Positions 22,671 to 29,052 of a DNA stretch of 64,000 nucleotides are shown one piece after another. The notes under the pieces were generated by a model. It ran no database searches. It saw only the letters and a program-made list of their open reading frames with translations, and was not told the DNA's origin. Within the stretch, counting starts at the first letter, position 1. Each line of letters starts with the position of its first letter. A program made the translations under genes and the position numbers. The DNA is from an uncultured Alphaproteobacteria bacterium (GTDB lineage: Bacteria > Pseudomonadota > Alphaproteobacteria > Rhizobiales > Xanthobacteraceae), in the NCBI GenBank assembly GCA_963784755.1, contig CAWASS010000003.1:395591-459590 (forward strand), written 5' to 3'.

Positions 22671-25509
22671 ATGGCAAAAGTTGCTTCCAAGCCCAAGAAA
22701 ACCGCAGCGAAATCAAAGCCATCTGTATCGGCGCGCGCCAAAGCCGCAGCGTCGGGCGGCGCGCGCAAGGCGCTGAACAAAGCTGCCGTCAAGCCGGCGG
22801 CGAGCAAACCCGCCGCAGACACTGCGAAATCCGGTAAATGGGTCTACACCTTCGGCGACGGCAAGGCCGAGGGGAAGGCGAGCATGCGCGATCTGCTCGG
22901 CGGCAAGGGCGCCAACCTCGCCGAGATGGCCAATCTCGGCCTGCCGGTGCCGCCCGGTTTTACGATTCCGACCTCGGTCTGCACCTATTTCTACGCGCAC
23001 GACAAATCCTACCCGAAGGAATTGAAGGCGCAGGTCGAAAAGGCGCTGGATCAAGTCGGCAGGATCGCCGGTAAGGGCTTTGGCGATTCCGAAGAATCCG
23101 CTGCTGGTGTCGGTGCGCTCCGGCGGCCGCGCCTCGATGCCGGGCATGATGGACACCGTGCTCAATCTCGGCCTCAACGACGCCGCGGTCGAGGCGCTGG
23201 CCGCGATGTCGGGCGACCGCCGCTTCGCCTATGACAGCTACCGCCGCTTCATCACCATGTATTCGGATGTGGTGCTCGGCTTCGAGCATCATCATTTCGA
23301 GGACATCCTCGACACCTTCAAGGACAGCCAGGGCTATACGCTCGACACCGACCTCACCGGCGACGACTGGGTCGACCTGGTCGGGCGTTACAAGGAGGCG
23401 GTGGCGCGCGAAACCGGCAAGGATTTTCCGCAAAGTCCACATGAGCAATTGTGGGGCGCGATTGGAGCTGTGTTTTCATCCTGGATGAATGCGCGCGCGG
23501 TGACCTATCGCCGGCTGCACGACATTCCGGAATCCTGGGGCACCGCGGTCAATGTGCAGGCGATGGTGTTCGGCAATATGGGCGAGACCTCGGCCACCGG
23601 CGTCGCCTTCACCCGCAATCCCTCCACCGGCGAGAGCAGGCTCTACGGCGAATTCCTGATCAATGCGCAGGGCGAGGACGTGGTGGCGGGGATCCGCACG
23701 CCGCAGGACATCACCGAAGCCGCGCGCAAGGATTCCGGTTCCGACAAGCCGTCGATGGAAACCGCGATGCCGGACGCCTTCAAGGAGTTGACGCGCATCT
23801 ACACGCAGCTGGAAAAGCACTACCGCGACATGCAGGACATGGAGTTCACCGTCGAGGACGGCAAGCTCTGGATGCTGCAGACCCGCGGCGGCAAGCGCAC
23901 CGCCAAGGCCGCGCTGCGCATCGCGGTCGAACTCGCCAACGAAGGCGTGATCTCGAGGAAGGATGCGGTATCGCGGATCGATCCGGCCTCGCTGGACCAA
24001 TTGCTGCATCCGACCATCGATCCCGGCGCCAAGCGCGACGTCATCGCCACCGGGCTGCCGGCTTCGCCGGGCGCCGCCTCCGGCGAAATCGTCTTCTCTT
24101 CCGATGAAGCCACCAAACTGCAGGCCGATGGGCGTAAAGTCATTCTGGTGCGGATCGAGACCAGCCCCGAAGACATCCACGGCATGCATGCCGCCGAAGG
24201 CATCCTGACTACGCGCGGCGGCATGACCTCGCATGCGGCGGTGGTGGCGCGCGGCATGGGCAAGCCCTGCGTCTCCGGCTGCGGCACCATCCGCGTCGAT
24301 TACGGCCGCGGCACCATGAGCATCGGCAAGCGCACCTTCAAGACCGGCGATATCATCACCATCGATGGATCGCTCGGGCAGGTGCTGGCGGGCCGGATGC
24401 CGATGATCGAACCGGAACTGTCGGGCGAATTCAATACGCTGATGAACTGGGCCGATCAGGTCCGCAAGCTCGGCGTGCGCGTCAACGCGGATACGCCGGA
24501 TGACGCGCGCACCGCGATAAAATTTGGCGGCGAGGGCATCGGGCTGTGCCGCACCGAGCACATGTTCTTCGAGGAAACCCGCATCCGCACCGTGCGCGAG
24601 ATGATTCTGGCCGAGGACGAACAGGCGCGCCGCGCAGCACTGTCGAAGCTGCTGCCGATGCAGCGCGCGGATTTCGTCGAACTGTTCGAGATCATGAAGG
24701 GGCTGCCGGTCACCATTCGGCTGCTCGATCCGCCGCTGCATGAGTTCCTGCCGCATACGCAAGCCGAGATCGAGGAAGTTGCGCGTGCGATGAACACCGA
24801 TCCGCGGCGTCTGGCCGACCGCGCCCGCGAGCTCGCCGAGTTCAACCCGATGCTCGGCTTCCGCGGCTGCCGGCTTGCGATTGCCTATCCGGAGATCGCG
24901 GAGATGCAGTCGCGCGCGATTTTCGAGGCCGCGGTCGAAGCGGGCAAACGTACCGGCAAGGCCGTCGGCCTCGAGGTGATGGTGCCGCTGATCGCGACCA
25001 GGATGGAGTTCGACCTGGTCAAGGCGCGCATCGACGCCACCGCGCAGTCGGTGATGAAGGAGACCGGCGCCAAGCTGAACTATCAGGTCGGCACCATGAT
25101 CGAGTTGCCGCGCGCGTGCCTGATGGCGGGCGACATCGCCGAGACCGCGGAGTTCTTCTCGTTCGGCACCAACGACCTGACCCAGACCACCTACGGCATC
25201 AGCCGCGACGACGCCGCCGGATTCCTCGGCACCTACATCGCCAAGGGAATCCTGGAGATCGATCCGTTCATCTCGGTCGATCGCGACGGTGTCGGCGAAC
25301 TGGTCAGAATTGGCGTCGAGCGCGGGCGCAAGACGAGGGCAGACCTCAAGGTCGGCATCTGCGGCGAACATGGCGGCGATCCCGCCTCGGTGACGTTCTG
25401 TCACGAGATCGGGCTCGATTACGTCTCCTGCTCGCCCTATCGCGTGCCGATCGCCCGGCTCGCCGCTGCGCAAGCCGCACTCGGCAAGACCGCGGCGGGG
25501 CAGGCGTAA
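22671..25509 (+). CDS. ppdK: Pyruvate, phosphate dikinase; apparent +1 base at 23091
   Basis: [48 protein letters not shown]. Removing G23091 gives GDSKNPLL and fuses the two ORFs. Confidence 0.93.
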
Positions 25510-25635
25510 CGTCATTCCGGGGCGTCGTGCCGACGAATTGAAACCCGTAGCGCGGGTTAGCGACAGCGTAACCCGCCATTTCCGGCGGCACGGCGAGCCG
25601 GCGCGGCGGATTACGCTGTCGCTAATCGTACCTAC
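25510..25635. repeat. Chimeric REP: truncated family B left arm followed by a family A-like unit (25547-25635)
   Basis: cgtcattccggggcg... then gtagcgcgggttagcgacagcgtaacccgcc...ggcggattacgctgtcgctaatcgtacctac. Confidence 0.7.
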
Positions 25636-25691
25636 AGACCGCAGCTTCAACCTTGTAGGAATGTATTCACGATCTGTTGATCGCGGGGCGT

Positions 25692-25719
25692 TTGACATAG
25701 TTCCGGACTGGTGTATATT
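25692..25719 (+). promoter_or_regulatory. Sigma70-type promoter
   Basis: TTGACA (25692-25697), 16-nt spacer, TATATT (25714-25719); no downstream protein gene on this strand. Confidence 0.6.
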
Positions 25720-25726
25720 CCTAGGC

Positions 25727-26100
25727 ATCTCATCCCAAGCTAAGGGAGCGTTACTTAAGGACGCTTTGCAACGTGGGGGTGGGAGCGGCGCCCGCGGGCA
25801 GGAGCAAACGTAGCTCCGCGCACACGGGAGGCCTTGGGTTTCCGTCCGGCCCGCAAGGGCCCGCCACTGAAGTTGGCTGGACGGGGACAGGCGAGCGGCG
25901 CGAAATCGCCGTGCTCAGGCTTCGGCCGCCAAGTCCCCGGAAGCGCGGACCGAGGCTAAAAGATCGCCGCGGTGGAACGTCGGAAGGCGTTTCCGTGGCC
26001 TCTGATTCTCGGCGATCCGGGAATCAAGCTGCGGCTCTGCTACCAAGGTGCGCCTTTCGGCGTTCCGCCTCCCTCTTATTCTCTTCGAGGGAGGTTCTCT
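25727..26100 (+). ncRNA. Putative large structured non-coding RNA, family not recognised
   Basis: Stacked stems with GCAA, GAAA and cUUCGg loops; 18-bp helix closed by G-U wobbles only on the + strand; terminal hairpin 26068-26094. Confidence 0.55.
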
Positions 26101-26178
26101 GAAACCTCCACTCACGCGAAGGCATTTGCGGGCGGCGATGACGCTTGGGCGGAAGAAGCAGCAGACGAAATTCTCCAC

Positions 26179-26304
26179 GTCGTCCCGCGCAGGCGGGGAC
26201 CCATAGCCTCCGTCTCAGTGATGCAGAAGGTATCAGCCGTGCGGAAACAACATGCCAAATAATGACCGCCGGTGGTTATGGGTCCCGGCGTTCGCCGGGA
26301 CGAC
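26179..26304. repeat. REP-like palindrome family D (GTCGTCCC...GGGACCCATA / TATGGGTCCC...GGGACGAC)
   Basis: Inverted arms at 26179-26204 and 26277-26304; related half copy at 53567-53595. Confidence 0.75.
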
Positions 26305-26350
26305 AGTGGAGTCCGCGGGAACGAGGGCGGTGCTGCATTTCGTCCAACAA

Positions 26351-26376
26351 GAAAGCCGGCGTTGCCGCCGGCTTTC
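26351..26376 (-). terminator. Intrinsic terminator of rpoH
   Basis: 11-bp stem gaaagccggcg/cgccggctttc followed by a U-rich tail on the minus strand. Confidence 0.7.
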
Positions 26377-26401
26377 GTTTCGTTATCTCAAACCGCGTCG
26401 A

Positions 26402-27301
26402 TTAATGCGCGGCTTCCATCGTGGCTTCCTCCTGCCGTGCGATGGTGTGCTTGACCGCCGACTGCACCTTCTCGAAGGCGCGGACCTCGATCTGCCGCAC
26501 GCGTTCGCGCGACACGCCGAATTCGGATGCGAGATCTTCCAGCGTCATCGGATCCTCGGCCAGACGCCGCGCCTCGAAGATGCGGCGCTCGCGCGGATTG
26601 AGCACGCCGATCGCGCCGTTCAGCGCCTGGCGGCGATGATCGAACTCCTCGTGCTCGGCCATGACGGCTTCCTGGGTGGGCGAGTGATCGACCAGCCAGT
26701 CCTGCCATTCGCCGGCTTCGCCGTCGTCGCGGATCGGCGCGTTGAGCGACGCATCGCCGCCGAGACGGCGGTTCATGTCGACAACGTCCTGTTCGGTGAC
26801 GCCGAGCCGCTTGGCAATCAGCTTCACCTGGTCGGGGTGCATGTCACCCTCGTCCAGCGCCGAGATCTTGCTCTTGGCCTTGCGCAGGTTGAAGAACAGC
26901 TTCTTCTGGTTCGCGGTGGTGCCCATCTTCACGAGCGACCACGAACGCAGGATGTACTCTTGAATCGACGCCTTGATCCACCACATGGCGTAGGTGGCGA
27001 GTCGAAATCCCTTGTCGGGCTCGAACCGCTTCACCGCCTGCATCAGGCCGACATTGCCTTCCGAGACGACCTCGGAGATCGGCAAGCCGTAGCCGCGATA
27101 GCCCATGGCGATCTTGGCCACGAGCCGGAGATGGCTGGTGACAAGGTGATGCGCCGCGTCCCGATCGTCATGTTCGCGCCAGCGCTTGGCGAACATGTAT
27201 TCTTCCTGCGGTTCCAGCATCGGGAACTTGCGGATTTCGGCGAGGTAACGGGAGAGACCGGATTCTCCATTGAGAACCGGCAAGGTAGCTGTACGGGCCA
27301 T
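26402..27301 (-). CDS. rpoH: RNA polymerase sigma-32 factor
   Basis: HLVTSHLRLV, RpoH box KMGTTANQKKLFFNLRK, GVSRERVRQIE. Confidence 0.96.
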   Translation of the reverse strand: MARTATLPVLNGESGLSRYLAEIRKFPMLEPQEEYMFAKRWREHDDRDAAHHLVTSHLRLVAKIAMGYRGYGLPISEVVSEGNVGLMQAVKRFEPDKGFRLATYAMWWIKASIQEYILRSWSLVKMGTTANQKKLFFNLRKAKSKISALDEGDMHPDQVKLIAKRLGVTEQDVVDMNRRLGGDASLNAPIRDDGEAGEWQDWLVDHSPTQEAVMAEHEEFDHRRQALNGAIGVLNPRERRIFEARRLAEDPMTLEDLASEFGVSRERVRQIEVRAFEKVQSAVKHTIARQEEATMEAAH

Positions 27302-28977: not shown

Positions 28978-29052
28978 GCTCCCTTCGTCTAGCGGTTAGG
29001 ACGCGGCCCTCTCAAGGCTGAAACAGGGGTTCGATTCCCCTAGGGAGCGCCA
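28978..29052 (+). tRNA. tRNA-Glu (CTC)
   Basis: Cloverleaf GCTCCCT.../AGGGAGC-G-CCA, anticodon loop CTCTCAA, T-loop GGTTCGATTCC. Confidence 0.95.

Follow-up and report, generated by a model that had tools for sequence, protein, structure and literature searches.

Positions 25692–26094 of the window, the 64,000-nucleotide (nt) stretch of DNA analyzed here from an uncultured Xanthobacteraceae bacterium (assembly GCA_963784755.1, contig CAWASS010000003.1), lie between ppdK and rpoH and are best read as the gene for a stable, abundant, structured noncoding RNA (ncRNA) of ~370 nt. The RNA belongs to a chromosomal multicopy family outside Rfam and probably works with a small protein carrying four conserved cysteines (the Cys4 protein). 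We favor this reading as a whole with moderate confidence, and its core, a genuine new family of structured ncRNA, with high confidence. The original prediction, made from the sequence alone, had proposed that the + strand encodes a structured RNA transcribed from a promoter of its own, which the promoter, the fold and the covariation among homologs all support. As a correction to it, the RNA is multicopy, with 23 family members in the genome.

A conserved promoter upstream of the RNA

The RNA follows a sigma-70-type promoter that agrees with 11 of the 12 consensus positions (Table 1), and from which a transcription start at ~25725–25727 is predicted. As the original prediction had claimed, a TTGACA-16-TATATT promoter is present; it is the only sigma-70-like site within 25400–26500, where shuffled sequence gives a mean of 0.2 sites, and its hexamers are kept across copies. 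It also matches the rhizobial housekeeping consensus, CTTGAC-N17-CTATAT.

In all 14 subfamily-1 copies of the genome, TTGACA and a TA...T −10 box are retained and their distance to the RNA is constant, while the spacer and the sequence farther upstream diverge. The −35 and −10 boxes are likewise kept in Rhodopseudomonas palustris, Tardiphaga and distant family members. Conservation of the hexamers next to spacers that are free to drift argues that the promoter is functional.

Two promoter classes recur between genomes: class A, to which the window copy belongs, carries the box aGGAATgtATTCACGATTTGTTGAT, and class B an A+T-rich AAAAATTTAATGTTT block. The class-A box is common to 7 of the 11 copies nearly identical to the window copy and to class-A copies of other genomes, and is possibly the site of a regulator.

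RNA fold and covariation

Downstream of the promoter, the + strand folds with a minimum free energy of −193 kcal/mol (z = −4.6), compared to a weaker z = −3.3 for the − strand of the RNA region. The RNA was shown to form at least 14 helices, arranged in three domains, and to end in a 3′ hairpin (Table 1; reference position = window position − 25719). All the helices that had been drawn from the sequence alone exist, displaced by at most 1–3 nt, and most of them are kept in homologs.

Covariance modeling was done by domain, with two domain models. As model-fitted alignments favor their model, counts from MAFFT-only alignments and controls with the pairing partner slid guard against this bias. 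For the 3′ domain and terminal hairpin, 97.8% of the cells of the MAFFT alignment pair, versus 43–52% with the partner slid; both sides change in 26 of 43 pairs of the 3′ domain over 93 copies from many genomes, which none of 500 shuffles reaches. In the central domain, plain MAFFT gives 87.5% of cells paired versus 31–59% slid, with 15 of 38 pairs changing on both sides, and the 63 model-aligned copies give 26 of 38 pairs (248 cells). The covariation score of this domain is 0.325 versus 0.123 in shuffles, none of 500 reaching 0.325. Covariation among homologs had been set beforehand as one test of the prediction, and compensatory changes were found in both domains.

Individual helices follow the same pattern. 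Between the strands of P1, A13-U in reference-type, Tardiphaga and R. rhenobacensis copies stands against G-C in 16 copies, and at U9-A the Tardiphaga and R. rhenobacensis copies have C-G. In P3, independent lineages show C-G changed to U-A, each time at a different one of two positions; one pair of P7a is GC in 36 copies and CG in 25, the basal pair of Px is GC in 46 and AU in 10, and the terminal hairpin shows a U-A to C-G change. G-U pairs make up 11% of the paired cells on the + strand and would be A-C mismatches on the opposite strand, so selection acts on the + strand RNA, in keeping with the earlier reading of the strand-specific wobbles as a sign of selection at the RNA level.

Other elements vary. 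The UUCG hairpin is dispensable, homologs showing UUCG, GCAA or CUUG loops, long inserts, or no hairpin at all, and the apical P10/P11 is swapped for other inserts in distant members. P6 and Py, with ~77% of their cells paired, are less well modeled because subgroups use registers one base apart. The terminal hairpin, placed at the 3′ end by the original prediction, is present and covaries, but it lacks a proper U-tract and is not among the calls of the terminator scan.

No coding signal is present in the RNA, whose homologs differ by 1-, 2- and 4-nt insertions or deletions all along. A 109-amino-acid open reading frame (ORF) at 25773–26102 was ruled out as a gene by such frame-breaking changes between close homologs, and the earlier view that the RNA holds no credible ORF is retained.

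RNAalifold proposed two further pairings. A helix closing the 5′ end with the tail segment GCGGGCGGCGATG was dropped in favor of P1, which has A-U to G-C covariation where the alternative has none. A candidate anti-terminator between GGGAG (25826–25830) and CUCCC (26070–26074) found no support, with no compensatory change and one break, in L048.

Both strands of P9 are short palindromes in their own right (ACGUC-GGAA-GGCGU and GCGCC-UUUC-GGCGU), as they are in distant members (GCGCC-GAAA-GGCG and GCGCC-UUUC-GGCGC), so that the helix could switch into two local hairpins. In addition, the segment GCGGGCGGCG (26128–26137) of the tail downstream of the terminal hairpin matches the complement of the P3/P4 5′ strands (CGGCGCCCGC, 25786–25795) at 90%, a possible alternative pairing in read-through transcripts. 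Both segments are near-invariant, and comparable matches are common in this GC-rich region.

Expression in metatranscriptomes

In two plant-associated metatranscriptomes, assembled contigs (≥85% identity) cover 25748–26088 with a summed word depth of ~10^3 to 4 × 10^4; 54 and 57 contigs, respectively, have ≥99% identity. Depth is 0–25 over the promoter region, the tail and the flanks, and drops at the terminal hairpin from ~4800 (bin 26058–26088) to ~4 (bin 26089–26119). This coverage agrees with a transcript beginning just past the −10 box and having its end at the hairpin (26068–26094), and the collapse past the hairpin would mean that downstream read-through is ~100–1000 times rarer. The transcript check set with the original prediction came out in its favor, with contigs, strandless and pooled over related organisms, that span the predicted transcript. 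Judged from this one RNA, such depths would be expected only of stable RNAs of the highest abundance. Word matches to the RNA also occur in many other soil metatranscriptomes.

The locus has the hallmarks of a stable independent ncRNA gene: its own promoter, a hairpin 3′ end, a conserved structure and RNA contigs (the ends and strand of the transcript being unmapped).

Copies in the genome

The genome searched for copies comprises 4.96 Mb in 5 contigs and, judged by its DNA runs, was probably assembled from a soil metagenome. Its 23 family members fall into 11 at ~95–100% identity to the window copy, 3 at ~73%, and 9 of a second subfamily, which is homologous over the whole core and has its own 5′ end and tail. 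What BLAST had suggested as a "130-nt stand-alone module" is the stretch of this full-length second subfamily that is conserved best.

Second-subfamily copies (C4:1876968-1877304 and eight other loci) have a distinct 5′ domain, GUCCUGUCC...GGGACAG, and a different tail. They occur in at least three unrelated promoter contexts, one of which has TTGACG..TATACT, and two contexts carry an upstream palindrome, GGGGATAGTTATCCCC or CTTG..CTTATCCT.

Copies of the RNA sit in repeat-rich intergenic DNA and, in fragmented assemblies, at contig ends. This setting, the high copy number and the ~96–100% identity among 11 of the copies would suit a non-autonomous DNA repeat (MITE-, REP- or mosaic-like), whose hairpins would be DNA palindromes and whose promoter would be incidental. 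We consider this already disfavored reading very improbable. No target duplications were recognizable in the flanks of the 11 near-identical copies, no inverted repeat joining the unit boundaries at 25654 and ~26155 was found, and terminal inverted repeats are absent, unlike in a MITE or other non-autonomous transposon. REP, BIME and RIME elements are palindromes of 20–150 bp, without promoter and strand-symmetric, whereas the unit here spans ~430–500 bp, has a promoter and pairs asymmetrically. Promoter hexamers kept while spacers drift, strand-specific G-U pairs, abundant compensatory changes, conserved positions across species and high RNA abundance also speak against a mere repeat.

We favor instead an RNA gene whose copies would have spread by DNA duplication between repeat-rich intergenic regions, with no dedicated transposase. 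An example may be the block 25546–26304, which is duplicated at 96% identity at C5:378458-379207 of the same genome. Gene conversion may homogenize the RNA bodies, which would fit near-identical bodies beside divergent promoter spacers.

A conserved tail and the Cys4 protein gene

A conserved tail of ~60 nt lies past the hairpin (..CUGAAC..ACUCACG.GAAGG.AUUUGCGGGCRGCGAUGACGC), followed in many copies by a GGAGG-type ribosome-binding site and an ATG. In ORF-linked copies, the tail ends in a hairpin, GGGCAGCG-AUGA-CGCUUGCCC, just 5′ of the ribosome-binding site. The ORFs encode 105–190 amino acids (232 in one case) and share the motif C-x4-C-R-R-x3-C-x6-C; W35, C38, N40, C43, R45, C49, E55 and C56 are invariant in 34 protein sequences. 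There are two main types, one starting with M..WDAAFLKERER.. and the other with MKAK.E.QSP.. and ending in a C-terminal ..RIDRAWNEYV..RGPRITQL. Among the 116 distinct RNA copies whose flank is long enough, 25 are followed by an ORF with the motif, as are 21 of the 63 with a subfamily-1 tail, including copies of R. palustris, Nitrobacter, Tardiphaga and one distant member.

The Cys4 protein has ~160 metagenomic relatives, all "hypothetical", and is annotated as hypothetical in R. palustris CGA009 and TIE-1 (Rpal_4753). No sequence-profile match was found in Pfam, NCBIfam, PADLOC (three ORF variants), PHROG or PDB. Its AlphaFold2 model is all-helical (pLDDT 74, pTM 0.40) and found no informative neighbor with Foldseek. 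The protein may bind Zn or Fe-S.

The RNA-ORF pair occupies two conserved positions across genomes, one between a RibD_C-family gene and a chpT-like gene, the other convergent with rpoH. Many copies, though not that of the window, show what we take as the ancestral unit: promoter, RNA, hairpin, ~60-nt tail, ribosome-binding site and the gene of a four-Cys helical protein of 105–190 amino acids. In the window copy, the 3′ arm of the tail hairpin is mutated (GGGCGG), no ORF lies downstream, and a REP-like repeat (26179–26309) fills the slot where relatives hold the Cys4 ORF between the RNA and rpoH. The repeat in the ORF slot and the disrupted tail hairpin mean that this copy lost its ORF and kept promoter and RNA. 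Pairing is kept at 95.7% in ORF-less copies versus 97.2% in ORF-linked copies.

Some ORF-less copies lie directly upstream of, and on the same strand as, other genes (relatives L016/L046 and L007/L012), which from their translations resemble ABC-type substrate-binding proteins and acyltransferase-3 proteins, in two genomes each.

Distribution among bacteria

Within the genus, the RNA is patchy, 8 of 401 species genomes carrying it. These eight genomes are small (4.2–6.0 Mb) and have 1 to 19 matches each, shortened variants included, with six or more in all but one. In the same family, the covariance model of the 3′ domain (R1) detected the RNA in 164 of 401 genomes, which represent 35 of 62 genera, and most often with several matches to a genome. 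An exact-pattern scan named R. palustris 2.1.18 and XCP and R. rhenobacensis DSM 12706 as hosts, along with metagenome-assembled genomes of Tardiphaga, Nitrobacter, Bradyrhizobium and Xanthobacteraceae, and among these hosts the RNA occurs at full length, together with its promoter, tail and ORF. Recurrence in Bradyrhizobium intergenic regions had been mentioned with the original prediction; the RNA does recur intergenically, 23 times here, but the family reaches far beyond Bradyrhizobium.

Distant members keep the promoter, P1–P3, the motifs CGGGCGG and GGAAGCGCGGCCCG, the long helix GGAGCGCCGAAAGGCG / CGCCUUUCGGCGCUCC and the CCUCCC terminal hairpin, with the peripheral hairpins replaced. 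The plasmid, phage and viral-contig collections searched held no copy of the RNA.

Comparison with known RNA families and systems

A search of the whole window with Rfam 15 at gathering scores found only a tRNA, and at E ≤ 10 the region 25450–26450 gave only noise of at most 18 bits. The single noise match inside the RNA was SMAD5-AS1_2 (11.8 bits, − strand, 25865–25992). Rfam searches on relatives (R. palustris, Tardiphaga and distant members) gave no relevant match either. The absence of any Rfam 15 match, which extends to HEARO, the BjrC sRNAs and Rhizobiales motifs, agrees with the initial impression of a family unlike RNase P, tmRNA, SRP RNA, 6S RNA or group II introns. The open full-text literature searched contains no description of the RNA family; the closed literature may hold one.

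In R. palustris XCP (L090:615-696 and 780-861), two sub-threshold Rfam matches to "mir-503" (36 bits, 165 nt apart, − strand) are probably a repeated REP-like hairpin pair and not a real microRNA.

The OLE RNA (with its Oap proteins), ROOL, GOLLD and the raiA-motif RNA are large bacterial ncRNAs whose function is obscure or only recently glimpsed. The RNA described here resembles them in its several hundred nucleotides, many covarying helices, high abundance and own promoter, and the Cys4 gene adjoins many copies as partner protein genes adjoin the OLE gene. Unlike them, it matches none of their sequences or structure models, belongs to Alphaproteobacteria of the Bradyrhizobium family, reaches 23 copies in a genome where they have a single one, and has a small Cys4 protein as its partner candidate; no association of its copies with prophages or tRNAs was seen.

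The layout of HEARO, the omega RNA of IscB (RF02033), is also similar: a structured RNA of a few hundred nucleotides upstream of an optional ORF, multicopy and often ORF-less. This could suggest an RNA that serves as guide or scaffold in a mobile system directed by RNA, such as HEARO/omega RNA with IscB, a TnpB omega RNA or an IS110 bridge RNA. We regard this idea as largely refuted and scarcely credible. No Rfam HEARO or IS605-orfB model matches, and the ORF encodes the small, helical Cys4 protein, which has no nuclease or recombinase domain and is not IscB (no RuvC or HNH). The RNA has its own conserved promoter and no variable guide-like segment, its 5′ end being conserved up to the −10 box and both ends up to the flank, and no insertion sequence ends of the IS200/IS605 or other type were found.

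Type III toxin-antitoxin systems (ToxIN, CptIN) share the succession of promoter, ncRNA, a terminator setting the stoichiometry, and a small protein gene. In such an addiction or defense pair, the abundant RNA would neutralize a toxic downstream protein and the ORF-less copies would be spare antitoxins; the RNA level, which seems to exceed the ORF message by far, and the numerous orphan RNA genes would fit this. However, the RNA folds as one complex structure and contains no array of tandem repeats, the protein shows no relation to the ToxN, CptN and TenpN models and matches no PADLOC, Pfam or PHROG model, the loci occupy conserved chromosomal positions (by chpT and by rpoH) and not defense islands, and no plasmid or phage copies were found. 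We consider such a pair improbable.

The likeness to OLE, HEARO and ToxIN is organizational only, and the defining feature of no known family was found in the RNA, which we rate as a new family and, to the extent of the tests made, a new kind. To our knowledge, large bacterial RNAs with a complex fold and no known job are rare, and the solved cases (RNase P, OLE, ROOL/GOLLD and omega RNAs) each exposed new biochemistry. The present family is notable for its occurrence in 35 of the 62 sampled genera of one alphaproteobacterial family, with up to two dozen copies per genome, and for a conserved partner gene whose fold has no known neighbor, while being absent from Rfam. Its presence in R. palustris CGA009 and TIE-1 makes it testable in a genetically tractable organism. 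For annotation, the 23 copies (~10 kb) are currently left as unannotated intergenic DNA, and RNA copies break short-read assemblies.

Possible function of the RNA and its partner

The original prediction had left open a ribozyme, a ribonucleoprotein (RNP) scaffold or the RNA of a mobile element. The evidence now leans to an RNP or regulatory RNA, whereas a classical transposable element is argued against by the lack of terminal inverted repeats and of plasmid, phage or viral copies. In the mechanism that we propose, the terminal hairpin would terminate or process most transcripts, so that the RNA would far exceed the ORF mRNA, and the RNA would act in trans, most likely as partner, scaffold, sponge or sensor with the Cys4 protein. 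ORF-less copies, including that of the window, would add RNA dosage; action in trans would explain why they retain promoter and fold. We put forward this RNP/trans mechanism tentatively.

Three points weigh against this picture. The link between RNA and protein is one of co-location only; the 11 near-identical copies may be young, in which case their intact fold would say little about selection on copies lacking the ORF; and the expression evidence consists of assembled contigs summed over related organisms, without strand or mapped ends. Moreover, an RNA followed by an ORF is also the layout of a leader acting in cis.

Such a leader would be a very long riboswitch-, T-box- or protein-binding-type attenuator that governs read-through into the Cys4 ORF, the ORF-less copies being relics or co-opted upstream of other genes. 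As in riboswitches and attenuators, a structured RNA and a hairpin precede a coding region, and the RNA reads stop at the hairpin, where depth collapses. The order promoter, RNA, hairpin, tail, ribosome-binding site and ORF recurs across genera, the tail hairpin by the ribosome-binding site is intact only with the ORF present, and some ORF-less copies precede same-strand acyltransferase-like or substrate-binding-protein-like ORFs (read from translations, two genomes each). Yet about three quarters of the copies have no ORF and still keep promoter and structure. The position of a leader, in the 5′ untranslated region of a regulated gene, holds for ~22% of family members and not for the window copy, which faces the 3′ end of the convergent rpoH and thus has no target for regulation in cis. 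An anti-terminator backed by covariation did not emerge either, the GGGAG/CUCCC candidate being the one that breaks in L048. The RNA is also much larger than known aptamers, most of its copies are ORF-less, and dozens of copies per genome, 23 here, are unlike any known riboswitch. We therefore think a cis-acting leader unlikely.

Returning to the RNP, its boldest form would be an unrecognized system made of an abundant, multicopy ~370-nt RNA, subfamily-specific promoters and a Cys4 protein encoded behind an attenuating hairpin, which would work in trans to regulate or sense on a global scale in free-living bacteria of the Bradyrhizobium lineage, including R. palustris. This proposal is speculative.

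The locus and its neighbors

The identities given earlier to both flanking genes are upheld by TIGR01828 for ppdK and by TIGR02392/NF005143 for rpoH. Coordinates are collected in Table 1.

Table 1 Features of the RNA locus in the window (P, paired region; two ranges separated by a slash are the two strands of a helix).
Feature	Position	Strand	Remarks
ppdK	23080–25509	+	TIGR01828
Class-A upstream box ctGTAGGAATgtATTCACGATcTGTTGATCg...	25654–25691	+	Copy alignments with flanks
Sigma-70-type promoter	TTGACA 25692–25697, 16-nt spacer, TATATT 25714–25719	+	11/12 consensus positions
5′ domain	25728–25784	+	P1 25728–25736 / 25776–25784 (reference 9–17 / 57–65) encloses P2
P2 inner hairpin	25746–25752 / 25760–25766	+	Invariant in all copies
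Central domain	25785–25970	+	Closed by long-range P3 25785–25790 / 25965–25970 (reference 66–71 / 246–251)
P4/P5	25791–25828	+	Includes ggagc/gctcc 25801–25805 / 25813–25817
P6	25830–25837 / 25950–25957	+	Central domain
P7/P7a/P7b three-way arm	25843–25883	+	ggccc-GCAA-gggcc 25848–25861 inside 25843–25847 / 25879–25883
Px/Py	25884–25893 / 25927–25937	+	Central domain
P8, GAAA-loop hairpin	25896–25911	+	Central domain
UUCG hairpin	25918–25927	+	Variable arm
Conserved CGGAAG hairpin	25938–25947	+	Central domain
3′ domain	25973–26067	+	P9 (18 bp) 25973–25990 / 26050–26067, P10 25993–25999 / 26028–26034, P11
P11 (10 bp)	26003–26012 / 26017–26026	+	3′ domain
Terminal hairpin CCTCCCTC-loop-GAGGGAGG	26068–26094	+	Apparent 3′ end of the abundant RNA
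Conserved tail ..CTGAAAC..ACTCACGCGAAGGCATTTGCGGGCGGCGATGACGC	26095–26151	+	Copy alignments; low RNA depth
REP-like repeat, unrelated to the RNA	26179–26309		>15 genomic copies, full or partial
rpoH	26402–27301	−	TIGR02392/NF005143; convergent with the RNA gene

The REP-like repeat is ~130 bp long, and copies of the RNA are often flanked by such repeats. Directly after ppdK, an imperfect long palindrome, gggttagcgacagcgtaacccgcc...ggcggattacgctgtcgctaatc, lies within 25546–25653 (inverted repeat 25557–25625) and recurs at C5:379129-379196 and C2:618944-618999 of the same genome.

A canonical intrinsic terminator with an 11-bp stem and a GTTTCGTT tail was found at 26351–26376 and is reported by the scan on the + strand; as its stem is palindromic, it also directly follows the rpoH stop on the − strand. 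The tRNA gene that is the sole Rfam match of the 64-kb window is located at 28978–29049 and scores 62 bits.

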